DNA of 64,000 bases. It comes from Nitrospirota bacterium (GTDB lineage: Bacteria > Nitrospirota > UBA9217). The notes beneath the pieces are model-generated. The model was not told where the DNA came from. It saw nothing but the letters and a program-made list of their open reading frames with translations, and made no database searches. Numbering within the stretch: the stretch's first letter is position 1; each line of letters opens with the position of its first letter. This document shows positions 3,837 through 21,911 of the stretch, one piece after another. The stretch lies in assembly GCA_963741205.1 (NCBI GenBank), contig CAVUHW010000022.1, positions 32,001-96,000 of the forward strand, read 5' to 3'. A program made the position numbers and the translations under genes.

Positions 3837-4711
3837 CTATTCACTCCCTTCTTTGAATTTCACTTCATCGACTTTCTGGCCTTCGATCAACTGGACCTTT
3901 GAGTAATATTCCTTTGCAGGTACATGCGGCTCGGCAACGACCTTTTCTTCTTGCGTACTGCTTTCTTCTCCGGCGCGGGGCCCTTGCCGCTTAAAAACCT
4001 GACGAGCGACTGCACCGTGGCTCCCTTTGTGCCGATATTCTTGGTATCGCTGAAATTCCTGAGGGAGAGCTGGAGTTTCCCTTCCGCCGAGGCGAGGGCG
4101 AGCACTTCGGCCTCCTCGGGCGACACTTCGAGCGTGATCACGTCCACCTCGACGGGCTTTTCCTGCTTGCCTCTGATCTCCGTTTCCGTCCCGGTGGCGA
4201 GGACGGGGATGTTTTCGAGGACGGTCATGGTTACCGGCATGCATCGAATTTGCAGGCCTGAAGGTGGCGACGACGTCCACCCTGTTTCCCGGATGTATGA
4301 AGCCCGACACACCCTGCACCTTATCCACCTTCACGCCCATGGCCCGCTTGTTTTCGGATATCACGGCCGCAACTCCGCCTTTGGTGATGTCCGAGGGCGC
4401 CAGGCGGGATTCGAATATCGGCTCATCGGCCTTTATGGGGGTGATGACGACGCGCCCCGCAACCGTGGCTGGGTCTGTAAAGAAACCGATGTCAGGCTTC
4501 CCTTGAGGAATGGAACGGTCTTTACCATTTCCGGCTTTATGATCGTCCCCCAGTTCAGGTCAGTAACGGCCACGGCCACGTTCACGAGCTCCCCGCGCTG
4601 GCTTGCGAGCGCGACGGACCTGTCCTTGAGCCAACGGTAAACCAGAAAGCTCGTGGTGAGAGCGACCAACACGGTCAAGACGATAAGAATTATGGGTTTA
4701 TATCTTTTCAC
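3837..4711 (-). CDS. cpaB: Flp pilus assembly protein CpaB (frameshifted)
   Basis: N-terminal TM, SAF domain VAVAVTDL..G, KRAMGVKVDKVQGVSGFIHPGNRVDV, VLENIPVLA, ITLEVSPEEAE. Confidence 0.92.
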
Positions 4712-4754
4712 ATCACACCCCCGGATTAACGGATAAATAATTTCACTTTAAATG

Positions 4755-4787
4755 CGGGAGAGATGCTTATCGAAGCATCTCTCCCGA
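4755..4787 (-). terminator. Hairpin between flp and cpaB (terminator or mRNA stabiliser)
   Basis: cgggagagatgctt-atcg-aagcatctctcccg perfect stem. Confidence 0.65.
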
Positions 4788-4803
4788 AAGCTTGCAGAAG
4801 CTA

Positions 4804-5003
4804 CTAAGTTGCCCGCCACAACGTGTAGGTCAGAAATTGCTTACCAATTGCAGCCGTAAGCATAGCCGCATGACTCGCCGGCAAGAAAGCCGCTGATGAT
4901 GATGAGCCGCCATGATGACTCGCGACCGAGCACCCACTCTCACGCTCACTTCGCCCTTTTCCTCCTGCAGTTTCATCCGCATGTATCTTAACATCTCCTT
5001 CAT
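4804..5003 (-). CDS. flp: Flp type IVb pilin (frameshifted)
   Basis: RBS aaggagg, then MKEMLRYMRMKLQEEKG/EVSV(E)W followed by a hydrophobic helix; about 65 aa; first gene of the Tad operon. Confidence 0.75.
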
Positions 5004-5208
5004 ATATTTCCACCTCCTTTCGTGATAAAGATAAATTCGGCCCATGATGCCGTCTAGCTTCTCTATTTCTTATCCTGAACTTACATAAGCAGCATTTTAC
5101 TGCACTCATTCGTATGGCGATAAAGCTCTTGCAACGAGCTACCGGCATGAGCGATAAGCCATCTAAAAGATCCCCGGAATAAAGCGGGCTCTCCTCAGGG
5201 AATAGGTC

Positions 5209-7795: not shown

Positions 7796-7880
7796 GCCGA
7801 AGTGGTGGAACTGGTAGACACGCACGTTTGAGGGGCGTGTGGGGCAACCCATGGGGGTTCGAGTCCCCCCTTCGGCACCA
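7796..7880 (+). tRNA. tRNA-Leu (GAG)
   Basis: GCCGAAG acceptor stem pairs with CTTCGGC followed by ACCA; D-loop TGGTAGAC; anticodon loop TTGAGGG; long variable arm; GTTCGAG T-loop. Confidence 0.96.
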
Positions 7881-8039: not shown

Positions 8040-9648
8040 ATGGCCAAACTTCTCCCCATAATTCTGTTCTGGTTCTCCGTCGTTTTCTTTCCCGTGGCAG
8101 GCCTTGCCCAGCCTCCGCAGAACGCCAGCCTCGGGATCGTGTCCGCTCCGCTTGCCAACGTCCACGAAGAGCCGCTCCCCAAGTCCCGGCTTGAGACACA
8201 AGTGCTCATGGGAGACGAGGTGCGCATCCTGGAGAAGCAGGACAACCGCTACAGGATCTCGATCCCGAACCAGGGCGACCGGGAAGGCTGGATCCAGCAG
8301 GAAGCCGTGCAGATTCCGAAGGACAAGGGTCGCTTCTATCTTAACTCCGATCGTCCCTGGATCATGATCGCGGTGCCCAAGTCCGAGGCGCTGATACTTG
8401 ACAAGACCGGCGATCATAAAGTCCCCCTCTATGCCGGCACGCGTCTTCCGGTGCTCGAAACAATAAAGAATGGTTTCAAGGTCCAGTTTCCGGACCGGTC
8501 CGTCGCAATCATCGCCGGCGCCGATGTGATGCCGGTGAAGTCCTCGGATCCGGTCGTGAACAACACCAAGCCCGACGAGATCGCGAACACGGCAAAGCGC
8601 TTCCAGGGCGCCCCGTATCTCGCGGGAGGAATGACCGCCCAGGGCATCGACATGAACGGCCTCATCTCCGTCAGCTACCGCGTCCATGGAATCACGATCA
8701 ACACGGAGCGTATCGGACATCAAGGCACAGGGAGCGCGCGTATCGAAGAAAGACCTCGATCCCGGCGATATCCTGGTCTTCTCCGGGGAGGGCAGGGGCC
8801 TTTACGTAGGGGACGGCCGGTTCCTCCAGGTTGCGAAAAAAGGCAAGGTCCAGCTTGCCGGCGTCGCCGACCGGCGACATGCCAACTCACTCCAATATTG
8901 CCTTCGGATTCTCGGCGCCGGCCCTGACGAGAACAAGCGCACGGCCCAGATGGCCGCCGACGAGATCCTCCTCGCGCAGGCGCGGGTGACGCAACTCCCA
9001 ATCGGCAAACGCATAGCCTACTGGGCAGGCCGCTTCATCGGGACCCCTTACGACACCGACCCGCTCGGACTCTATGTTCGTACGAACCGCATCATAGCCG
9101 ATGAGAAGGTCGACTGCATGTACCATACATTCCGCTCTGTAGAACTTGCGCAAAGCGGTACGCCGGGCGAGGCCGTCGACCGGGCGCTCGATCTCCGCTT
9201 TACCTCCCGGGGAAAGCTCGCGGACGGCCTCGTCACCAACTACGATGAACGGTTCCAGTACGGCGAGGACATGGTCATGAGCGGCAAGTGGGGGAAGAAC
9301 ATTTCTGCCGAACTCGGCGCGATAAAAACGATTCCCGGCTCGCGGGGCAAGGACACGGTGGACATCCTTCCGAAAGAGGCCCTCCTGTCCAAGGCGCTCC
9401 AGAAAAAACTCCAGGACGGAGACATCGTCTACTGGGTCAAGGACCCGAAGAAGCGCGTAGTCGAGGAGATCGTGGCCCACCTGTCCATCGTGCAGGTCAA
9501 ATCCGGCACACCCTATCTCATCCATGCCTCGGGGAGCAAGAACCAATGGGGCACTCCGAACGGCGGCGTGGTCAAAGAGGTCCCCTTCGCCGAGTACGTG
9601 AAGAACATGAAGTTCATCGGCGCCTTCGTGACACGCTTCGAGCAGTAG
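8040..9648 (+). CDS. Secreted SH3b + NlpC/P60-like + DUF1460 (amidase-like) peptidoglycan hydrolase (frameshift near 8720)
   Basis: Signal peptide; SH3b ETQVLMGDEVRIL...GWI; AKRFQGAPYLAGG..GID; second domain FIGTPY...VDCMYH...H...LIHAS. Confidence 0.8.
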
Positions 9649-9929
9649 CCATTGGCTAAAAATAGCCCATAATCCGCTCCGCCGATTCTCGCCCCGGTCC
9701 CAATAGCTCCATCCTCCCTTGTCTCTTCTCTTGCCCTTTCCATCGAATTATAGTTAAAGTCATGTAAATATTGCAGAATACCCAATGCTCGTGAATCTAG
9801 CAATCCATCAAGCAAGAAGATTTTACGCTATTCCGGAACCGAAGCGTGAGCTGGGCGCAGACTTCAACGATATGGGGAGACCTCGCCGAAGCCCTCTCCA
9901 TATGAAGCGGGGGAGCTGCTTGAAAACAT

Positions 9930-10141
9930 TAGATACGTCTGGAAGACTGGCACCGATGCAGTCCCGCAATCTCGGACCTGCCGAAGAATTGAAGAACTGT
10001 AAAAGATCAGAACTGGCCGACATCTTCATATTTCTGACGTATATCAGCGAGGAATATCAATCGATCGGTTTAAAGAAGTTGAAAGCAAGATTCGCGCAGA
10101 ACGCCGCCAAGTATCCTGTGGCCGGATGTTTCAGAGATTGA
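9930..10141 (+). pseudogene. MazG-like/dCTP pyrophosphatase remnant
   Basis: Cross-frame fragments DWHR..SPRNL, ELADIFIFLTYISEEY and QNAAKYP. Confidence 0.55.
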
Positions 10142-10457
10142 CTGGGTGTACATCTGGATTAATCGTAAAGAGTTATCAAAGAAGTACGGCACACCGGACT
10201 ACTGGGGGTAGAGTAAAAGGTGAGAATAACTTTGAAAGATAACTGGGACGTTCGTTCTCAGAGTGCATTGCGGCGTAAGGTATCAAAGGCCTGCTTCTTT
10301 CCGAGCGACATGAATCGATTTGGCGAGATGTAATGCGGCGTGCGGCGGTAATCACAGTAAATTTGTAGCCCGGCTCACGGCAGCAAACCACCATAGGTAT
10401 ATAGGCTCCACTGCCTCAAGAAAGCAGAGCTTAAGTTTGTGGAGCGGGGGAAATAAT

Positions 10458-11478
10458 ATGAAAGCTGTATTGAGCACGGATTACAAAACCTTTCTCGGAG
10501 AGATAAAAGAGCGCATCCATAAGGCCCAGTATGATGCTCTTAAAGCAGTAAACAAAGAGCTGATAAACTTGTATTGGGACATAGGCAGAGTCAATAGTGG
10601 CAAAGCAGGATACGCTTAAATGGGGCAAGGCAGTTGTGGAGACGCTGGCAAAAGATCTGCAAAAAGAGTTTCCGGGGATACAGGGGTTTTCTGCTGAGAA
10701 CCTTTGGAGAATGAGGCAGTTTTACAAAACATATGCGGAAAACGAAAAACTCTCACCATTGGTGAGAGAAATTAGCTGGACAAAGAACGTCATCATTTTC
10801 ATGCAGTGCAAAAATGCTTTAGAGCGTGAATTTTACATCAAGGTGACGAAAAAGTTTGGTTGGACGAAGGATGTCCTGATACATCAGCTTGAGGCGGGCG
10901 CGTACGAGCGGTTCATGGCAAACCAAACCAATTTTGATAAGGCGGTGCCAGAACGGTACAGACATCAGGCGAAGCTCGCAGTGAAGGACGAATACTCATT
11001 CGACTTTTTAGAGCTTGCCGACGAGCACTCGGAGCGCGAGCTTGAGCGGGCGCTCCTTGAGCACGTCAGAAAGTTCCTCATAGAAATGGGGGGCTATTTT
11101 GCCTTTGTCGGCAATCAGTACCAGCTGGAAATTGATGACCAGGAGTTCTTCATCGATCTGCTGTTGTATCACCGGCAACTGCGTTGTCTTGTCGCAATCG
11201 AACTGAAAGTCGGGGCCTTTAAGCCCGAATATGCCGGCAAGATGCAGTTTTATCTTTCCGCCTTGAATGATAGAGCAAAGCTTCCGGAGGAGAACCCTTC
11301 CATCGGCATTATCTTGTGCAAGGATAAAAGCAGGACTATTGTGGAGTACGCGCTGAAAGACACAAAAAAGCCCATCGGCGTATCCACGTATAAACTGACG
11401 GAAAAACTGCCGAGGGACCTTAAGAAATATCTCCCGTCTCCTGAAGAGATGATTGAAAGAGTGAAGCTATTGGGCTGA
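10458..11478 (+). CDS. yhcG: YhcG/DUF1016 PD-(D/E)xK nuclease (frameshift near 10590)
   Basis: AVNKELINLYWDIG, GFSAENLWRMRQFY, KDEYSFDFL, FIDLLLYHRQLRCLVAIELK, ENPSIGIILC. Confidence 0.93.
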
Positions 11479-11671
11479 TTGATCCGTGAGGGCGTTCGTT
11501 CTCAGAGTGAAATCTCTTTGTGGCATAACGTTGTTGCCGTCTGCTCATTCTGCTCCTCGTACACTTTTTTCAGTTTGACATTTCCGCAACTTCTCTGCTA
11601 TTCTCTGCTGGAAATCACTGTTCCCACGCGATAACTCTGAACTCTGAACTCAGAACTATCGAAGGATTCTT

Positions 11672-12723
11672 ATGCTTTCCAAAGTCATCAGCTCCGCGGT
11701 CCTTGGCATCGACGCCTACCCTGTAGAAGTCGAAGTCGACGTCGCGAGCAGGGGCCTTCCCTTTCTTCGCCACCGTGGGCCTGCCCGACGCCGCCGTCAA
11801 AGAGAGCAAGGAGCGCGTGCGCGCCGCGCTCAAGAACACGGGCTTCGATTTCCCCCTGAAGCAGGTCGTCGTGAACCTTGCGCCGGCGGACATCAAGAAG
11901 GAAGGCTCCGCCTTCGACCTGCCGATTGCGATCGGCATGCTGATCGCGGAGGGGATCATCACCAGGAGCAGGCGTCCGGCTTCCTCATCGTGGGCGAGCT
12001 CTCGCTCGACGGCCGCGTCAAGCCCGTGCGCGGCGCGCTTTCGATGGCCGTGCTCGCGAAAAAGGCCGGGATACCGGGGCATGGTGGTTCCGGCAGACAA
12101 CGCGCAGGAGGCGGCCGTCGTCGAGTCGGTGAGGATCTTCGGCATGCAGACCCTGCCGCAGGTCGTGGAGTTTCTCTTTGGCCATGCTCCCCGCCGAGCC
12201 GGTTCGCGTCGATGTCCGGGACGCCTTTGAGACCTACTCCGCGTACCAGGAAGACTTCTCCGAGGTAAGAGGGCAGGAGCATGCGAAGCGCGCCATCGAG
12301 GTCGCCGCTGCCGGCGGCCACAACATCATCATGATCGGCCCTCCGGGCTCGGGCAAGACCATGCTCGCGCGCCGGCTTCCCTCCGTCCTTCCCCAGATGA
12401 GCTTCGACGAGTCCATCGAGACGACGAAGATCCACAGCGTCATGGGGCTTCTCCGTCAGGGCCAGCCTCTCATCGCGACGAGACCGTTTCGGAGCCCGCA
12501 CCACACCATTTCGGATGCGGGCCTGATAGGCGGCGGACAGGTCCCAAAGCCGGGCGAGGTGAGCCTGTCGCACAACGGGGTGCTCTTCCTGGACGAGCTC
12601 CCGGAGTTCAAAAGAAACGTGCTCGAGGCGCTCCGGCAGCCGCTCGAAGACGGCCAGGTCACAATATCGCGCGCCGTGACCTCGCTCACCTATCCCGCCT
12701 CACTCATGCTCGTCGCCGCCATG
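11672..12723 (+). CDS. comM: ComM/YifB Mg-chelatase-like AAA+ ATPase, N-terminal part (interrupted by insertion)
   Basis: [50 protein letters not shown]. Homology stops exactly at LVAAM. Confidence 0.95.
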
Positions 12724-12900
12724 CATGCTCTGTTGTTATGCTCAGCACGATGGGCACTAACTACGACAAGAAAATGAATCGAGATACATCAAGAGATGAA
12801 CATACATAAGTCTGTTTGGGAAACCCGTGTCAGCTTGGACTTTCAGCACTCCTCTTATATCCAGAGGATATACCTGCAGTGAGGTTGTGCTTCCATAACG

Positions 12901-13092
12901 TTGAAAACTCAATACAAGCAGCGGACAGAGATCGTTGGTTTTGAAGTATATACGATTAAAGGTGTCGTGCGAACTGATCATGCTAGCGAGGCAGTATATG
13001 TACTTTTGGGTGACGTCGCCATGCTGGGTCTTGCTGAATTAATTTTTTCCCCATATGCTGTTTCTATATGGATTGAAGAGCGATTCTACTGA
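12901..13092 (+). pseudogene. Fragment of a putative lipoprotein or membrane protein
   Basis: LGDVAMLGLAELIFSP hydrophobic motif; no intact start found. Confidence 0.3.
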
Positions 13093-13317
13093 AAAGAATA
13101 TGACTATCTGGTATGGAATCAACAATACATTTGAAGTCGGTGAAATTGAATACAGTGAAACTCACAGAATTTATCACATTTATCCCTAGCGACTGTCGAG
13201 AATATTTCAGTAAATGACTTGAAACGTAAGCAGCCATTTTGTAACACGCCGCGAGAGGAACACTAGAAGCATCACCTCAAAAGGGGAACGTCAGGCAAAA
13301 CCTGATGCATCGAAAAA

Positions 13318-13980
13318 ATGAGAACATTGCTTAAGGAATTGGAGCTCGCGTGCGGTACTTTTCTAGCTGTTGTGTTATTGAGCGGCTGCATTTGGGGAGT
13401 CAAAAAGGTAGAAATTACGCACGGTCCGCTGAACCCGATCCAAAACAAAATAGAGGGCATAATTGGTGTGAAGCCATTTACTGATGCGCGAGAAGGAAAT
13501 CGACGAAAGAACGGCACTGTGTACGTTGCAGCTGGGACCGTGGGTTCTGTCGAGTTAAAGGGGGATTCTCATTTGGGTGATATATTTGCCGGATATGTGG
13601 TCGAAACCTTGGAAAACGCAGGGTATCAGGCTGTCATCATGGATTTCGCGTTTCAGGTACAATCCGCTGCTACTGAGAAGGTTCCTGTGATTTTGGAAGG
13701 ATGATCTCAAAATTCTCGGTAAATACTATGCCTCTAAGCACGGTGGAGGTCACTCTCCTATTGCGTGATGCAGAAAACGAGGATGTTCTATGGTCAACAA
13801 CTATCTATGGGTATGGCGAGGGCACGCTTTGGACAGGTGCTCAATCAGAATTTGAGGATTGTTGTCCGTCAAGCCGTCGATGAGGCCCTAAACCAAGCAG
13901 CTACAGAGTTTGTTTCGGACGCTTTCTACGAAAAGATAAAAAGATCAAACTCACCACCTGTGCCAAATACAATGCGTTGA
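13318..13980 (+). CDS. Putative lipoprotein (YajG-like; frameshifted into three ORFs)
   Basis: Lipobox LLSGC; VKPFTDAR; consecutive ORFs 13318-13704, 13701-13883 and 13765-13980 join. Confidence 0.6.
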
Positions 13981-14403
13981 AGTGTAATGAAAGCTTTTTT
14001 AGTTTCGTTTTACGCAAATAGACATCTCATGACAATGTGGACTGGTAATCTCGGACTCATATATCCTCTATATTTAAGTATCAAACAGTTTTCTGCACTT
14101 CCCAAGTAAGGAGCTTGACTACAACCTTGTAGAGATGGTGTTGATGCCGACTGAGAAAAGTCAGCCCGATCTATTCTGGTCGAAACGTTCAGCAACAACG
14201 TCATCCTGAACTCGACAAATTCCATATCTTTCGAAAGACAACAGTTCACCAAGAAATAATCAATTATAGGATTTGACATGAGAACCGAACGAGTCTAATA
14301 TCGAACCATATTTGCACTGTCATTTTGCCTCCCGTGTTACCAATACGGGATGCAGATTGAAGCAAGGTTATTCTGGCAGGCACTTTTAAAATTGAGGCAA
14401 GGA

Positions 14404-14490
14404 ATGAAAGCACTTACGATCAAGCAGTCTTGGGTTCACGCCATCCTTCACGAAGGAAATGACATCGAGACTCGTTCGTGGAGTCGTAGT
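14404..14490 (+). pseudogene. ASCH domain N-terminal remnant
   Basis: MKALTIKQSWVHAILHEGNDIETRSW matches the ASCH pattern MKALSIKQPWA..I..G.K.IE.R.W, then homology is lost. Confidence 0.65.
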
Positions 14491-15057
14491 AGATATGTCG
14501 AGGCTGAATATTACCAAGAAGGCGCGAAAGACAAAAAAGATCCTGATGATAGCAGGTCATGGTGCTCGCAGCGTGTCCAGCAGCGCGAAGGTGAACGATG
14601 AAGTCCTTGATCAGGTGTGATATTGCTTGCTTCCGGCATAATATTCTCCTCTCCGATTTTTAGCGCCCTAAGCGTGAAACTGTTCGGGCTTTTGCCGGAG
14701 ATGATACGCCGGAATCAGGAGAAGATCGTGCTGCGAAAGAGGATTTTGACTATGTGGAGACCGGGTCGCTTGCGACAAAGGGCTTTCGAAAATAGGTAAA
14801 GGATGACAGAAGAGCCTGCTCTACGGGCAGGGGACGAAGGCATATGGACGCGATTTTCGACACTGACGTATATCTGCTTGATTGTGGGGCGCGAGAACCC
14901 TACGATTATTCAGGACAAAACTTCCCGTGTCGCAAGCGGCTCGATGAAAAATGTCGAAAATCGGTTTTCGATAAACGTGCAGTGCTTTAACTACTTTGTA
15001 TTAAAAAAAATCCAGATGGGCATATCTGCCCACCTGGAAAAGTGTAATGATTTTAAC

Positions 15058-15085
15058 GGTTCCCAGAATATTCATTCTGAGAAAT
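15058..15085. other. dif-like recombination site A
   Basis: ggttcccagaa-tattca-ttctgagaaat (11-6-11 inverted arms). Confidence 0.6.
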
Positions 15086-15162
15086 GGAGATTTAAAAAAA
15101 AAGACGGCGCACCGGTAACAGACCCGATAAGCGGCCTTCTCGCAGATTCAAGCGCACAAGCC

Positions 15163-15684
15163 CTACTTCGGAACGTCCGTCGCTTTCGATTTCACCGTGT
15201 AGTCTATGCCCACGTCGGATGCCTGTTTTTGCCTTACCACTTTAATGAATCCATATCCCAGGCCGACATGACAACTGTTGCAGCTCGCAATAACCGCGTT
15301 GTATTTCCTATCGAAGGCCTTAAAATCCTGGGCCATGATCGCCTTGTTCACCGGATCGAAGGTATTCTTGTAAAAATTTTCCCATGCAGGGTATTAAGCC
15401 GTTTTCGTGAACTTTGCAGGGTTCATAGCCGCATTCATATACTTTGACATATACGCTGCGAGACCCCAATTGCCGCCCTGGGCTGCGGAAAACATATCCT
15501 GGAAACGGTCGCCGACTTCACGCATCGGTACGGCGAATTTCGGTATCGCATTCTTTACCGCATCGATCTGCTTCTGCAAATCATCCTGCTTTGGCATTTG
15601 AATTTTCACGGCCTGGACGGCATTCATGCCGATAAACGACAACACCCCTGCCATAGCAATAAAGATGACGACTTTTCTCAGCAT
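15163..15684 (-). CDS. Periplasmic monoheme cytochrome c (helical, C-terminal CxxCH; frameshifted)
   Basis: Signal peptide MLRKVVIFIAMAG; CNSCH near the C-terminus. Confidence 0.75.
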
Positions 15685-15792
15685 AGTGGAACTCCTTTCA
15701 AAACTGATTTTAAGTTCGACTGTCCCGCGCTTCACTGCAAAACCTCAATCCTTCAACTTGTTTCATCATCACCTCCTTGTCTGAAGCAGCGT

Positions 15793-16631
15793 CTATTTTT
15801 TTTCCTCATGGGGGCCAAAGGTGTACTGATACGCAAGGTAAGCCGAGACCCGGTTATCACCATGGATGTCGCTTCCGACGGAGAAAAGCACGTGGTGGGC
15901 GTCGGTGACATTCACAATCGCACCCACATTGTAACCGAGACGGGATTTTGCGTCATCCGCATCCTTGGTCTGCGTAATAATTCTGCGCTGATCGTCAGCA
16001 GCTCGGACATTGCACGCTGCACTTGCCAGCCGAAAAACCAGTAGTCCTTGTTGCCTTCACCTGGATTTCGCCAGTAACCGCCGCCGCCGTAGGTTTGCCA
16101 CGGGCCCCAGGCCTTCTGCAGCCAGAGAGGAATAAAAATCCTCGTGTGTCCCGCGCCCAACCCCTTATCGCTGTCGCCGGTAGGCAATGTCACGATGGGG
16201 AAAGTCCCCACCATGAAGTGAGCATCCTCATCGTTTATGAAACGATACTTGATCCCCACCTCCGTGTCGCCGTAGCCGCGCTGCGTGGGCTCCCCCTCCG
16301 GCTTGTCGTATACAAACGGCGTGATAAGATGGAGCATGACATTGGGTACGACTCCATAGTTAAGCTCAAAATGCGGGGCGGTGCCGGAGGTCGCGTCCTT
16401 GTCCTTCGCGTACTGTGTGGCGACGTAAAACTCTCCATGCTTGTAATCCACGGGCTCCGGGTCGTCGGTAACAAAAGGCGGTCCGGCCCAGGTCTTGCCG
16501 ATGCCGATACCCATGACACACAAAATTGCTGCGAGGAGCGCTGCCAAGCGAGGCAGGAGCGCGGAGAACTGAATAATACTACCCTTTCCGGTCAAATATG
16601 AGATTCTACGACGGGAACAATCTATTTGCAT
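15793..16631 (-). CDS. Outer-membrane beta-barrel, putative MetA-pathway/transporter family (frameshifted)
   Basis: AGPPFVTDDPEP, ELNYG, GYGDTEVGIKYRF, LPTGD..KGLG, PLWLQK. Confidence 0.8.
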
Positions 16632-16663
16632 ATTTACTCCTTTTATTTTGAATTTATTAAGCA

Positions 16664-16691
16664 AGTTTCCAGAATACTCATTATGGGAAAT
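16664..16691. other. dif-like recombination site B
   Basis: agtttccagaa-tactca-ttatgggaaat. The right arm is 9/11 identical to the E. coli XerD arm ttatgttaaat. Confidence 0.7.
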
Positions 16692-17400
16692 GGAGATTTC
16701 AAAGACAAAACACCTGACCCCAGAAGCCCAGGTTATCGTCATCCACCTGGAATCACCGGGTCAACATTGAAACCACCAAGCGCCGACATATTTCGTCGCT
16801 CAAAAAAAGGACGCTCATTCGCAGCAATCGATATATTGTTGTAGATATCATATATATTCACGCCTTTGGAAGCATCCTTCTAACCCTCATGAAAATATGG
16901 ATTAGTATAATGAATCCATAGTCGCGGGTCAATCGAAAACAATGGAAAATCCATTATTCTTTTTGCCGCCTTTTCCAGCGATGAGGAGTTCTGTAAACTG
17001 CGGCACAAAACGCTGCGAGAACGAGGAGCTCGAGACCAATCTCCCTGTGGGGGATGGCTCAGCTGCCGCATTCTACATGTTTCAACCCGTATTTCGCAAT
17101 ATTCCAATCGAATGCAACGTGACCTTGTAGGTGATTTCGATAAGTGCGAAGAGGTTAAGAGTTAACAAATTCCGGTTAAACTATTCGTTCAAACTTCTAT
17201 CGGAACTATTGAATGACGGGGAAACCAGTTTATCGACAAATTACCCGGAGGGTAGATAACATTTTCGAAAAAGTGAAAAGCGTTCGAAATAAGAAAGCAT
17301 CATAGCCAACTTCTTGTCAGACGATGCACCGAAAGTCAACGTGCTCTCTGCCCGTAGCGCGGCTTTTGTCTGACTTCCGCGGGATTACCTTATTGCCCTC

Positions 17401-17792
17401 TCAAGGAATTTTCTTATAAACTGCGTTCTTCGTTTTGCAGGGTTTTATCCCATTGCTCAGCCAAGTCGAGTAACTGTTCCGGATCCCGATCCATGGCTGC
17501 TCCCAAGCGCTCGAACGACATCCCGTTGTAGGACGGTTTTGAAATACGCAGCCGGCCAAGTAGTATCGTCCGGGCACTCGAAAGGCACGTACCCGAGAAA
17601 TGCGATAATCTTCGGGATGTGCACCAAGTCCGGCTCGTTCCCGCGCTCCCAGTCCGTATACTGTCGCCTCCGAAACGCCGGTACTTTCTGCAACCTCCCG
17701 CTTGTATAGTCCCAGGTCCATTCGGTGCTTCCGAACGTGCTCGCCGATGGTTTTGGATTCTCAGCGGCTATAGTTGGTCGAGGAACAGCCAT
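17401..17792 (-). CDS. Tandem XRE-family HTH protein (frameshifted)
   Basis: Reconstructed: ENPKTIGEHVRKHRMDLGLYKREVAESTGVSEATVY.WERGNEP...IPKIIAFLGYVP, then a second HTH-like segment. Confidence 0.75.
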
Positions 17793-18306
17793 GTTGAATA
17801 AGGGTACTTTGCAAACCTCACTGAACCCCTGCAAGTGCGGAAACTGGGGAGATCCGCAGCACCAGTGTCAATGCACACCTCACCAGGTGCAGACCTACCG
17901 GTCGCGCGTCTCCGGCCCGCTCATGGACAGGATCGATATCCACATTGAAGTTCCCGCGATAAAGTTCGACGAAATCTCGTCGGACAAACCCGCCGAACCA
18001 TCGGATGCGATCCGCGAGCGGGTGACGAAAGCGCGGGCAATACAATATGCCCGCTTCATGAACGACGGCATCTACGCCAACGCGCACATGAAGCCGAGGC
18101 ATATCCGGAAGTACTGCAAGATAGACGAAGACTCACTGAGGCTCATGGAAACGGCCATGAACCGGCTGGGTCTTTCGGCCCGGGCGTATAACCGCATCCT
18201 CAAAGTGGCGCGAACGATCGCGGATATCGAGAGCAGCCAGAGGATCGCGACCGAACACATTTCGGAAGCGATTCAGTACCGCAGTCTGGACAGAAGGATG
18301 AGCTGA
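17791..18306 (+). CDS. comM: ComM C-terminal part with an element-supplied start codon
   Basis: NPCKCG...CQCTP...YRSRVSGPLMDRIDIH...LSARAYNRILKVARTIAD...EAIQYR; gagga RBS and ATG at 17791. Confidence 0.93.
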   Translation: MLNKGTLQTSLNPCKCGNWGDPQHQCQCTPHQVQTYRSRVSGPLMDRIDIHIEVPAIKFDEISSDKPAEPSDAIRERVTKARAIQYARFMNDGIYANAHMKPRHIRKYCKIDEDSLRLMETAMNRLGLSARAYNRILKVARTIADIESSQRIATEHISEAIQYRSLDRRMS

Positions 18307-18408
18307 ACTGCTTATTATGAGACGCCTTGTCTCTTCCAGCCCAAAGCGGAGCGCCGTAGTCATCACGGAGCCCCGGCACTACGGCGCCCCATTGCGAGCT
18401 CGTTTACC

Positions 18409-19009
18409 TTACTTCTCCGGGCCGTCTTCTTTTTTCTCCCTCTCCTGAGCAACACCCTTTCGATCATATGAGGGTCTCATCCCGCCCGGCCTCTTTCCGT
18501 CCCTCATGAAAGCAGCTTCCTGCTCTTCTTTGAACTTTTTTCTCTGCTCGGGCGTCAGGAGGGCCTTGATCTCCTCCCTGGCCTTGATGTGCGAAAGACG
18601 CAGGTCCGTTCGCATTGATTCGGTTTTCTTGAGCTTCGCTTCGACAGCGCCCATATCCACCGAATCCTTATGCAGAAGTTCTCTCAGCTCGACTCCTGCT
18701 ATTTCGAGGTCCGCCCTCTTTTTGATGGTCTCCTTCATTGCCCGGCTGCTGATCTCCTTAATCGCGTCCTTCTGTTTTTCGGTGAGATCGAGACTCATGA
18801 GCCTCTTGCCACAGGAAATGCATGGCCTCCGGAGAGCTGTTCATAAATCCTGTTCCGGGGCCCGCCATCCACGGACCTCTGTGCATGCCGTCATCCATGC
18901 CGCCCTGAGCCATATGACTGCCGCTTGCACATGGCCCGGCATAAGACCCGTTCGCTGCTGCAACCAAAAATAAAAAGCTGGCAAAAAACCCGATCCAAAA
19001 TCTCTTCAT
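18409..19009 (-). CDS. Spy/CpxP-family periplasmic protein (frameshifted)
   Basis: Signal peptide, Met/Gly-rich region, LDLTEKQ and LLTPEQ motifs. Confidence 0.85.
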
Positions 19010-19077
19010 GTTACGTTCTCCTTTCGATCGTCGTCAAATTTAACCACCGTTCCTGGGCTCAACTATACCGATCGAAT

Positions 19078-19108
19078 GTGGAGCTAATAGGGAAGAATTG
19101 AGGAAATG
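19078..19108 (-). promoter_or_regulatory. Putative BaeR-type tandem box, copy 1
   Basis: gtggagctaatagggaagaattgaggaaatg, nearly identical to 20369-20399. Confidence 0.6.
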
Positions 19109-19279
19109 CTGCCGCTTTCTTATTTATTGTTATTTCCGATGTGCTGCCTCAGACCGCGGAGATGTGAAGGTAAAGGACGAATGGAAGGTTTGTGTTTTTC
19201 AGCGTCTCTCAGGAGTATTGCCTGTTTTCGATGCAGAAGATCCTGCGAATATTTTTTCCTGCTCAATTCTCATCCTCAA

Positions 19280-19850
19280 TTATGGTACGGGCTGCAGAGG
19301 CTTAGGCGGTGGAGGCGCTACCTGAGGCTGATAGATATCGGGCGGCGCGGATTCCATGCCCGATGGGGGAGGCGGCGGTGGAGTCATCCGAACCCGATAA
19401 GATCGTCTCATCCCTGGAATCAGGTTCCCATTGGCGGACATGCACTGTTGATAGGCGATATCATACCGATACTGCGCCTGCCATCCGTAAAACTGGCCCG
19501 AATTGGCGCCTGTTGCGGTTCCGATGAGAAGCCCGCTTGCAGCGCCGAACGCCGCAGCCGAACCGACATTGCCTGAGGCGGCCCCAAGGGCGGCACCGAG
19601 ACCTGCTCCAACCGCAGTGCCGATCGCGGCCCCTGCGGCAGTATTTTTATTAACGATCTCCTGAGGAGTGAGCCCGATCTGCTGTTGTGACCATTGCCTG
19701 CACATGATGTCCTCGGTCTGGAACAGATCAAAGGGCTTGTCCGGGCGGCGGCAATACCATTACTCTGGGACCGCTCGGGATGGTCGCACATCCCCCTGCT
19801 ACCAACAGGACGACAAAAATCAAGAATGTTCGCTTGCCCGTTCTCATGAT
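19280..19850 (-). CDS. Glycine-zipper lipoprotein (frameshifted)
   Basis: GAAIGTAVGAGLGAALGAA zipper, YDIAYQQCM..GN, Pro-rich tail. Confidence 0.8.
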
Positions 19851-19854
19851 GACT

Positions 19855-20211
19855 TCACTCCCTCCCCTTTGGCGGACTCTGTGGAGGAACAACCTTTAGC
19901 CACCCGCTGGGGCATTGTTTCACGTAGGGGTAATAGGCTTTGAAGTCCGGACAGAAATACCAGTAATATTGCTGTTCCTGCACCTGGGGAGCCTGTTGCT
20001 CATAAACGGGATATTGCTGCTGCATCACAACAGGCGGCGCCGCGTAATAATAGGGATAGTATGGCGGACCCCAACCCCACCCGGGACCCCATCCCGGTCC
20101 GATCCAAATGCCGCCCCCCACAAAAGCCCCGCCATGCGCAGAGACGGGTAAGACGCCTGTAAAGAGGAGGACACTGACAGCCAAAATGAGAAAAATTATT
20201 TTTTTCATCAT
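19855..20211 (-). CDS. Pro/Tyr-rich secreted protein
   Basis: Signal peptide, GPGW repeats, YWYFCP...YYPYVKQCPSGWLKVVP. Confidence 0.8.
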   Translation of the reverse strand: MMKKIIFLILAVSVLLFTGVLPVSAHGGAFVGGGIWIGPGWGPGWGWGPPYYPYYYAAPPVVMQQQYPVYEQQAPQVQEQQYYWYFCPDFKAYYPYVKQCPSGWLKVVPPQSPPKGRE

Positions 20212-20368
20212 AAACTCTCTTTCTCCATTATCGGCTGTAGAACATTGCCTCCATTCTTTGGTCGCAGATATTTGTTGAAACATTATTGATCCTCAGGGTC
20301 TTATGATCATGACCCATGGAATCTTGAACGGTTCTACAACTGTCTCTAACTAAAATATACCTCTAATC

Positions 20369-20399
20369 GTGGAGCAAATATGGAAAGAATGAGGAAATG
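20369..20399 (-). promoter_or_regulatory. Putative BaeR-type tandem box, copy 2
   Basis: gtggagcaaatatggaaagaatgaggaaatg in the divergent promoter region before baeS. Confidence 0.6.
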
Positions 20400-20475
20400 T
20401 CGGTTACCCTGGTTCTTCCATCTTGACGGCATGACACGAAACGATATAGATTGAAGAAGGAGGAAAAAGACCTCG

Positions 20476-21911
20476 ATGAAAATGGGGCTTACCTATCGTT
20501 TGTTTCTCTCCATTCTGGGCGCGACGTGCCTGGCCATACTCGCTCTATTCCTGATCATGCGCTGGAGTGTCGATCGGGAATTTTACCGGTACCTCGGCAC
20601 CGTGGACCAGGCCCGGCTGGAGCAGATTGCGAATGAGCTTGGACGGTGATATGAAGAACAGGGAAGTTGGAAGTTTCTCGGTCACGGAAGCTCCCCGGTG
20701 GGACATCGGAGGCTTAATGATCCCGCCCGATCATGAGGCCGCGCGAATGCCGGACGCGGAAGGCGAGGGGCGCGGGCATGGTCAGCGCCCGTTCGGGCCT
20801 CAATCGCTTCATCGCAGGGGCGCCGGACGCCTCGTTGTTCTGGATGCGGACCGGACACCCTGTCCTCGGTTCTTATCCCAAAGATGAAGAAGTGAATTTC
20901 CGGCCTGTTATCGCCCGCGGCGAGAACGTGGGCTTTGTCGGCTTTTTATCGCCGAAACACTTCCTGCATCCGATGCAGGTCCGGTTCCTGACGCAGCAGC
21001 GGCTTGCCCTGTCTTTGGCTGCCGCGGGCATGGTGCTGGTTGTCATGGTCATTTCCCTGCCTCTTGCGCGCAGGCTGGTCAAGCCGGTCAAGGCGATGGC
21101 CGCCGCAACTCATGAAATCGCCTCCGGCCGCTATGCGACACGTATTCCCGTAACTTCATCGGATGAACTGGGTATGCTTGCCCGTGACTTCAACGACATG
21201 GCATTGACGCTCGAGAAACATGAGAAGGAACGACGCCAATGGGTCGCAGACATATCGCACGAGCTGCGGACGCCCATCGCAGTTCTGCAGGGAGAAATAG
21301 AGGCACTCCTGGACGGCATCCGCAAGGTCACGCCCGAGACGGTTCGTTCTCTTCATGCGGAAGTGCTCCGTCTGAACCGTCTTGTCGAAGACCTTTACCA
21401 TCTTTCACTTTCCGATATCGGCGCGTTGACATACCGTAAGGAGGACCTCGATCTCGCAGGGGCGCTGTCGTCGTCCCTGGAAGCTTACCGCGCCGAGTTC
21501 GGTCACAAGGGCATTGCCGTTACGGCTAATATTTCCGAAAAAGAGGTCATTGTCTTTGCAGATCCGGAACGGCTTGCCCAGCTTTTTGCAAACCTGTTCG
21601 AAAATTCCCTGAGATACACCGATGCGGGCGGCGAGCTTACCGTCAACCTCGTGTCAGCGAACGATCATGTGGTTATCGAAATTCAGGATTCGAAACCCGG
21701 CGTTTCTGCCGAGGACCTGGAAAAACTTTTTGAGAGGCTTTTCCGAGTGGAGGGGTCACGAAACAGAACCTCAGGAGGAGCGGGACTCGGTCTTGCAATC
21801 TGCAAGAACATCGTCGAGGCCCACGAGGGAACAATCTCCGCGCATCACTCGCCGCTTGGCGGCCTGCTGATCAGAGTCACCCTGCCGGTCCCGGGAGGCG
21901 GCCATGGGTGA
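20476..21911 (+). CDS. baeS: Sensor histidine kinase BaeS (frameshifted N-terminus)
   Basis: HAMP domain, [49 protein letters not shown]. Confidence 0.9.

Follow-up and report, generated by a model that had tools for sequence, protein, structure and literature searches.

The comM gene of a Nitrospirota bacterium is split by a 5.1-kb insert that is very probably the dead right end of a comM-targeting, prophage-like element of a large serine recombinase (LSR), without the body of the LSR gene itself. The split gene lies in the window analyzed here, a stretch of 64,000 nt (positions 32001-96000 of contig C22) from metagenome bin G000, which comprises 4.27 Mb in 50 contigs and is 84.5% complete with 4.9% contamination; genomes, contigs and loci are numbered below with the prefixes G, C and L, and positions are those of the window unless a contig or the insert is named. 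This reading draws on the split, on the homology of the right end of the insert to LSR elements found at the same site in other genomes, on the integration site and crossover core of that family, on the split-gene architecture of its intact members, and on searches of the insert and of the bin in which no LSR of the family was found.

Comparison with the intact genes of relatives places the split between ...AAM and NPC... of the ComM protein. The sequence LMLVAAMNPCKCG runs uninterrupted across the site at 10 of the 11 comM loci of relatives, the exception being G003, a genome of the same genus whose comM is itself interrupted. In a blastn comparison with the closest intact comM (L013), the match stops at 12723 (subject 2037) and restarts at 17822 (subject 2036), the insert occupying 12724-17823 (5100 bp) and the two comM halves overlapping by 2 bases, TG. 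A preliminary description of this DNA had proposed exactly this split, by a 5.1-kb insert with a TG overlap, and both the relatives' loci and the alignment to L013 bear it out. At 12723/12724 the left junction reads GCCGCCATG followed by CATGCTC, and the insert-free comM junction is ...GCCGCCATG joined to AACCCCTGC. No flanking direct repeat, terminal inverted repeat or TGT...ACA ends were found at the ends of the insert, so the earlier statement that target duplication and TGT...ACA ends are missing holds at both of them. The G+C content of the insert is 0.40-0.49 (0.56-0.58 in the stretch 15800-16600) against 0.60-0.67 in comM.

The two halves of the gene differ in condition. The 5′ part (11672-12723, plus strand) covers codons 1-350 of the intact gene and carries the ChlI domain (Pfam, E=6.7e-27) and positions 1-157 of the Mg_chelatase profile (E=3.3e-75, in an ORF, or open reading frame, ending at 12777), but it contains four single-base indels relative to the relatives L010 and L011 and can be read only in three frames. 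The 3′ part (17824-18306, plus strand; codons 351-510) is an open frame without indels, 85.4% identical to L013 over 480 nt with zero gaps, and the ORF 17725-18306 matches Mg_chelatase profile positions 152-206 and Mg_chelatase_C (E=5.6e-34). Deletion of the insert had been said to restore the comM codons at the junction in frame. Locally the frame is indeed rebuilt, yet the gene as a whole is not, as it keeps the four 5′ indels and the three frames.

The right ~430 bp of the insert is homologous to the right end of LSR elements that occupy the same comM site elsewhere, in Nitrospirota, Geobacter-like, Rhizomicrobium and Granulosicoccaceae genomes. In a DNA search of 40 relatives, insert positions 4706-5033 matched G003:C85:17929-18250 at 80% identity, directly upstream of the comM 3′ fragment of that genome; a copy of the whole insert was not found in these relatives. 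The suggestion that the insert is a decayed serine-recombinase element is upheld by this 80% identity to the LSR element of G003. The homologous segment is annotated as a pseudogene of the C-terminal helix-turn-helix (HTH) tail of an LSR, an 'XRE' ORF (17404-17829, minus strand), which ends in the P arm (about 17800-17829) of the right attachment site, attR. Directly beyond it, at 17830-17831, lies the predicted crossover dinucleotide of the element family, TG (CCCC-TG-CAAG), deduced from the overlap of the left and right attachment sites (attL and attR) in relatives.

By tblastx, the window tail matches the attR-adjacent ORFs of four genomes, G003, G032, G055 and G061. Their alignment (A1) contains seven gaps specific to the window, with lengths that are not multiples of 3, and none in the four relatives. 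Over the first 35 columns the window is nearly identical to G061, and its tail begins like that of G061 in the canonical phase, yet this frame closes after the core; a single frame stays open there for more than 60 codons, and it is in another phase than the canonical one. In both the window and G003, 13 nt separate the P-arm motif GCAAAC from the core TG, which in the window is the one at 17830-17831. With a P arm of the family, a CCCC-TG-C core and an outward HTH tail ORF that is homologous but frameshifted, the attR of the window appears canonical, the family P arm being joined to comM at the core. The last 8 P-arm bases of the window (TGAACCCC; G055 and G061 have them too) are identical to those that comM has lost on the left, and this explains why removal of the insert seems to restore comM so seamlessly.

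The elements of relatives show what a complete member looks like. In G003, comM is split at the same place by a prophage-like element that lies on two contigs, C84 and C85. Contig C84 carries the comM 5′ part, attL and, on the opposite strand, an ORF of 507 residues with Resolvase, Recombinase and Zn_ribbon_recom domains (Pfam), that is, an LSR abutting the comM 5′ half; beyond the LSR follow a CI/LexA-like repressor and then phage-type replication genes. Contig C85 carries phage-type recombination, methylase and DUF262 genes, and then an HTH ORF, attR and the comM 3′ part. A family search with the G003 LSR as query, taking one genome per species, gave 10 LSR loci, in records titled Nitrospirota, Geobacteraceae or Deltaproteobacteria, Rhizomicrobium and Granulosicoccaceae. 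The preliminary description had advised collecting elements at the same comM codon in relatives to see which recombinase they encode; in 9 of these 10 loci the LSR abuts a comM 5′ fragment, which ends at residues 352-358.

Junctions of the family locate its crossover. The motif ATGAAyCCnTG is retained before the element start in all eight LSR-bearing left junctions compared, and the overlap between attL and attR is ACCCCTG in G003, TGT in G081 and TG only in G083, where, as in G003, the P and P′ arms form clear inverted repeats about a core TG. Because the overlap narrows to TGT and TG in this way, we place the family core at the second TG of the site, the TG of CCn-TG-C, which lies 8 bp to the right of the TG of A-TG-A. 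The TG at 12722-12723/17822-17823, earlier taken as the crossover core, is therefore replaced in this role by the predicted family core at 17830-17831. A 2-base overlap is weak evidence for a crossover in any case, since roughly one junction in 16 would show it by chance alone.

Of the 64 genomes of the class, five (G000, G003, G032, G055 and G061) have a homologous HTH ORF adjoining a comM 3′ fragment, and the same pairing is seen in all seven loci from four Geobacter-like or Rhizomicrobium genomes. An extra comM fragment in G035 was excluded from the count; it is a second comM, uninterrupted at the site, that runs off a short contig. A 24-nt P-arm pattern had no match in viral contigs and, among metagenome contigs, matched only that of G061; relatives of the G003 LSR were likewise not found in viral contigs by single-protein patterns.

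The position of the core within the LSR gene points to a relation between the LSR and the HTH ORF at the other end of the element. The core CA falls at LSR codon phase 2 in six attL loci and at phase 0 in two, and in 10 attR loci the HTH ORF beside the site runs open across the core at phase 2. In G083, the LSR and the tail ORF are both in phase 0 at the core. Among the 120 top-ranking database homologues of the G003 LSR, eight are 598-658 residues long and include an HTH_3 domain. In one such natural fusion, P0007 (643 residues), residues 1-495 align to the LSR body at 66% identity and residues 493-640 to the attR-side tail ORF of G003 at 64% identity, with the join at a conserved Arg-Gly. 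The agreement of phases across the core, together with this fused homologue, indicates that the free element would encode LSR and HTH tail as one protein, which integration separates. On the same two grounds, phase agreement and the existence of natural fused forms of 598-658 residues, the 'XRE' ORF beside attR is the severed C-terminal tail of the LSR.

With attP inside the LSR frame, the free element would make an HTH-tailed LSR of ~640 residues, and the integrated element a tail-less LSR of ~500 residues, with the HTH as an ORF of its own beside attR. Should the two forms differ in activity, integration itself would act as a switch of directionality or lysogeny, a proposal that we hold to be evenly balanced between right and wrong. 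For example, only the long form of the LSR might integrate, or the severed tail might be a repressor or immunity factor. In G032, G055 and G061, whose remnants are LSR-less, the tail ORF is intact together with attR, which would fit a stand-alone role of the tail; the tail of the window is decayed. The split-recombinase architecture is conserved from Nitrospirota to Proteobacteria and is a property of the intact relatives, not of the window. We did not find it described for serine recombinases in the full-text literature searched, though supplementary files may list it.

The left end of the insert looks quite different from the right end. In a canonical attL of the family, comM extends through ATGAACCCCTG and then gives way to a P′ arm, a mirror of the P arm. 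The window junction at 12723/12724 lacks AACCCCTG and lacks the P′ arm, and since ATGAAyCCnTG is kept in every family attL compared and is missing here, it is not a canonical attL. In a pattern search of the bin, no P′-like inverted P arm was found at the left end of the insert, and the sole match of the P-arm pattern with zero mismatches was the P arm itself. On contig C40 of the same bin (~9044-9065, minus strand), a spacer between ordinary genes contains a 22-mer that differs from the inverted P arm at 3 positions; it could be a chance match or a pseudo-site.

The recombinase body is missing as well. A tblastn search of 12500-17900 with 10 LSRs of the family did not find it (best E=0.58), Pfam searches for Resolvase and Phage_integrase gave no match on contig C22, and the G003 LSR, searched by tblastn against the 4.27-Mb bin, had only two matches of 33-34%, to small resolvase-type genes on C47 and C28. 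A piece at 12919-13059 (plus strand) resembles three Geobacter-type LSRs at E of about 0.6 with no Pfam support and was treated as a chance match. The earlier remark that the insert contains no recombinase gene thus stands for whole genes and fails for fragments, of which there are two, the decayed LSR tail (17404-17829, minus strand) and a tyrosine recombinase stub (14423-14659, minus strand).

Frameshifts accumulate at 7 in 0.43 kb in the tail and 4 in 1.05 kb in the comM 5′ half, compared with none in 0.95 kb of ilvE, 1 in 1.7 kb of the NlpC/P60 gene and none in 0.48 kb of the comM 3′ half. With no family LSR found in the bin, no canonical attL, a pseudogene for a tail and a frameshifted comM 5′ half, the insert would be a fixed remnant unable to excise, and the comM of this organism is most likely permanently dead rather than reversibly switched. 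This agrees with the observation that comM was not found in 5 of 14 same-genus genomes (G001, G002, G004, G010 and G011) with a query of 182 or 510 residues. Two of these comM-negative genomes are 99-100% complete, and comM may be dispensable in this genus.

A history that accommodates these features would begin with a prophage-like element of a widespread family whose LSR integrates at a fixed site of comM, at the TG within the Pro352-Cys353 codons. Intact members carry the LSR gene at the left end, where it reads outward over attL; the recombination site is within its frame, so that integration severs the LSR body (~495 residues, left) from the HTH tail (~145 residues, right). The window retains the right end only, namely the P arm, the core and the indel-riddled tail. 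This copy presumably once had an LSR, lost by deletion or replacement; missing along with the LSR body are the P′ arm and the final 8 bp of the comM B arm, and the lost left part would have been replaced by a low-GC stretch, the tyrosine recombinase stub and a duplicated pair of cytochrome c′-like and porin-like genes.

There are several other possible explanations for the interrupted gene. The preliminary description favored a non-autonomous or decayed element by whose excision competence might be switched. As a rival, this would be an intact element, integrated by a serine recombinase at the TG of A-TG-A, excisable in trans and so controlling comM. The exact restoration of the comM sequence on removal of 12724-17823, with its 2-base overlap, speaks for such a switch, as do the attR sides of G055 and G061, which also read TGAACCCCTG and, judged by the right junctions alone, are compatible with a first-TG crossover in that sub-type. 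We nevertheless consider it very unlikely, because an attL of the AACCCnTG type is kept in 8 of 8 family junctions compared, the attR sides of G032 and G003 lack the first TG, the spacing of GCAAAC in the P arm fits the second TG, the left end is without a P′-like inverted P arm and without the canonical attL of ATGAACCCCTG plus P′ arm, no family LSR was found in the bin, and both the tail and the comM 5′ half are frameshifted. An assembly artifact at the left junction is also very unlikely, if marginally less so. In that case the comM 5′ half would continue into a canonical attL or an intact comM, and the sequence from 12724 onward would belong elsewhere. For a chimera, the sequence comes from a metagenome bin in which two relatives were assembled together, and its left junction departs from the canonical form. 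Contig C44 matches C22:26744-44723 at 82-93% identity and stops a single base beyond the comM ATG at which the insert begins in C22; this base, an A, fits comM or a canonical attL and not the insert. Against a chimera, the right junction is a genuine attR common to four relatives, so that the comM 3′ half is truly separated from the 5′ half; the bin holds no family LSR contig and no second comM 3′ half; and the sole repeat at the join, CATGCATG, is too short to mislead an assembler.

A third possibility, extremely unlikely, is that the resemblance to serine-recombinase elements is incidental and that the insert is an island of another type, either a Tn7-like one of the AbaR kind or one moved by a tyrosine integrase. 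In Acinetobacter, comM is a target of Tn7-like elements, the AbaR-type islands, which move by TnsABC-type transposition and have TGT/ACA ends and a 5-bp duplication. They interrupt the same host gene, but none of these features of their mechanism was found in the insert: TGT...ACA ends and a 5-bp duplication are missing, and a scan of 20 ORF pieces revealed no transposase, TnsA-C or rve domain. The tyrosine recombinase stub within the insert could be taken as the trace of an integrase; it sits mid-insert and not at an end, its relatives lie at other loci, only its N-terminal part is present, with no catalytic Phage_integrase match on C22 and no flanking direct repeat, and the right end of the insert is homologous to LSR elements. 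A tRNA attachment site or group II intron likewise finds no support, as an Rfam search of 9000-20500 (E<=0.1) was empty and the only tRNA in 1-22000 is a distant tRNA-Leu (7796-7880). Tandem accretion, in which a larger upstream element would bring its own comM 5′ half, was rejected because the upstream DNA is ordinary chromosome (Tad pilus, ilvE, tRNA-Leu and NlpC/P60 genes) and because C44 is merely a homeologous contig, colinear over 18 kb.

Several observations sit less comfortably with a dead LSR element. No complete element with the P-arm type of the window, which it shares with G061, was found, so its core is deduced from relatives. The left junction lies within 10 bases common to the P arm and comM, which would be rare for a random deletion endpoint and hints that a site-directed event shaped this junction. 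As C44 stops one base past the comM ATG, the local assembly graph is not simple, and the co-assembled relative may carry an intact comM or a full element that was collapsed or left unbinned. The LSR could itself lie in unbinned DNA, the bin being 84.5% complete. Finally, a cpaB-like gene (3837-4711), the NlpC/P60 gene (7947-9648) and ettA on C6 (L002, 1-1074) are each broken by one or two frameshifts, and part of the apparent decay may be assembly error. The frameshifts of these neighboring genes could reflect assembly indel errors or many pseudogenes in the organism.

Known systems help to place this element. LSR elements act as gene switches in the case of the Listeria A118-like phage in comK, the Bacillus skin element in sigK and SPbeta in spsM. 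There, an LSR element splits a gene that precise excision rebuilds, and a working LSR and both attachment sites are kept; in the window, by contrast, there is neither an LSR body nor a canonical attL, and frameshifts disrupt the host gene itself. An attP inside the integrase gene is characteristic of the SSV-type integrases of archaeal viruses, which are tyrosine recombinases. Integration splits the recombinase's own gene in these viruses as it does in the intact relatives described here, the difference being that a serine recombinase is involved and an HTH tail is severed.

The targeting of comM-type genes by LSRs has been published (PMC10083194, PMC9203015). The catalogue of Durrant et al. 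(2022) includes LSR-mobilized elements that target the Mg-chelatase/ATP-dependent-protease (ComM/YifB) gene (PMC10083194); target gene and recombinase class are the same as here, and the window differs in being a dead right end without an LSR. The text of that article, so far as it was available to us, does not mention an attP inside the LSR reading frame, although its supplements may list the family (PMC10083194). The prophage WO variant sr1WO of Wolbachia, from a different phylum, has the same layout as the element of G003 and, at the right end, as the window (PMC9203015), and its HTH_XRE genes are treated as transcriptional regulators by Bordenstein and Bordenstein (2022) (PMC9203015). The pairing of LSRs with comM is thus already established, and the window adds a degenerate member. 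Two cautions for annotation follow from this case. A seamless junction with a 2-base overlap is insufficient to call an LSR crossover, and an 'XRE regulator' beside a comM fragment can be a severed recombinase tail.

The remainder of the insert is a mosaic and not a coherent cargo. A Pfam scan of its 20 ORF pieces gave a single sub-threshold match, to Phenol_MetA_deg. The left third (12724-14420) is a low-GC stretch in which a lipoprotein-like ORF is broken over three frames (13306-13977, plus strand); the pieces scanned from it had no Pfam match at E<=1, and insert positions 1-1400 had no DNA match in 40 relatives. It is followed on the minus strand by the N-terminal remnant of a tyrosine recombinase and its upstream region (14423-15098), the remnant itself being an ORF piece of ~50-80 codons at 14423-14659, identified by DNA identity. 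Insert positions 1814-2375 are 74-76% identical to G003:C102 and G034:C148, and full-length relatives of the stub occur at other loci in these two genomes. The window piece by itself has no Pfam match; a homologue of 361 residues in L024 matches Phage_integrase (E=7.3e-25) and Phage_int_SAM_1.

Next comes a pair of genes flanked on each side by a copy of a 47-nt palindromic motif (15059-15105 and 16665-16711; direct repeat D1, 83% identical), the whole unit spanning 15059-16711 on the minus strand. The pair consists of a cytochrome c′-like gene (15166-15744) and an outer-membrane, porin-like gene resembling Phenol_MetA_deg (15796-16632), both frameshifted. The segment 14764-16658 is 89% identical to a second copy at C6:13889-15779. 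Domain matches are below the cut-off in both cases, Cytochrom_C_2 at E=4.5e-4 for the intact cytochrome copy of 173 residues on C6 and Phenol_MetA_deg at E=0.0013 for the outer-membrane gene. The 47-nt motif has an inner palindrome, CAGAAT..ATTCTG, and matches of 28-45 nt in G001, G002, G003, G011 and G034. It lies upstream of a tyrosine recombinase gene in G003 and upstream of genes in several relatives, and is possibly a regulatory site or operator, or a recombination site. Its resemblance to a regulatory site led us to set aside the idea that the tyrosine recombinase stub and the repeated motifs are parts of an integron. One copy of a different repeat, ~70 nt long, is present at about 14140-14210; it has no Rfam match and recurs in 13 other places in the bin at 74-93% identity, on contigs C5, C9, C10, C14, C20, C32, C41 and C49, three of them ~3.3 kb apart on C5.

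Related remnants vary in their content. In G032 (L033), G055 (L034) and G061 (L036), an intact comM is followed by 6-8.5 kb of cargo, an intact tail ORF, attR and an extra comM 3′ fragment that begins at NPC, and an LSR was not found in the stretches examined. The cargo of G032 and G055 includes an ORF of 2289 or 2513 residues, and that of G061 a phage DUF5131-like fragment; the giant ORF of G032 matches SpvB, TcdB_toxin_midN and RHS_repeat (Pfam). Between the two comM 3′ copies of a genome, identity is 98.8% over 485 nt for G055 and 72.7% for G032. In the Deltaproteobacteria-titled genome G080 (L058, L062, L064 and others), there are seven comM 3′ matches, at least four of them full 3′ fragments, and a tail ORF stands beside each of the three comM 3′ loci looked at, which suggests that this genome carries several or tandem elements at comM-like sites.

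Contig C44 of the bin (18.6 kb) is a second copy of C22:26744-44723. Its comM 5′ half contains one TAG stop and one frameshift, and a second comM 3′ half was not found in the bin. The spacer between the NlpC/P60 gene and comM also differs among these sequences. It is ~180 bp long in G003, and in the window it is a 2-kb low-GC island (9650-11650) with a frameshifted DUF1016/YhcG PDDEXK nuclease gene (10320-11478). In C44, the same spacer has a different filling of 2.2 kb with a 200-nt internal repeat.

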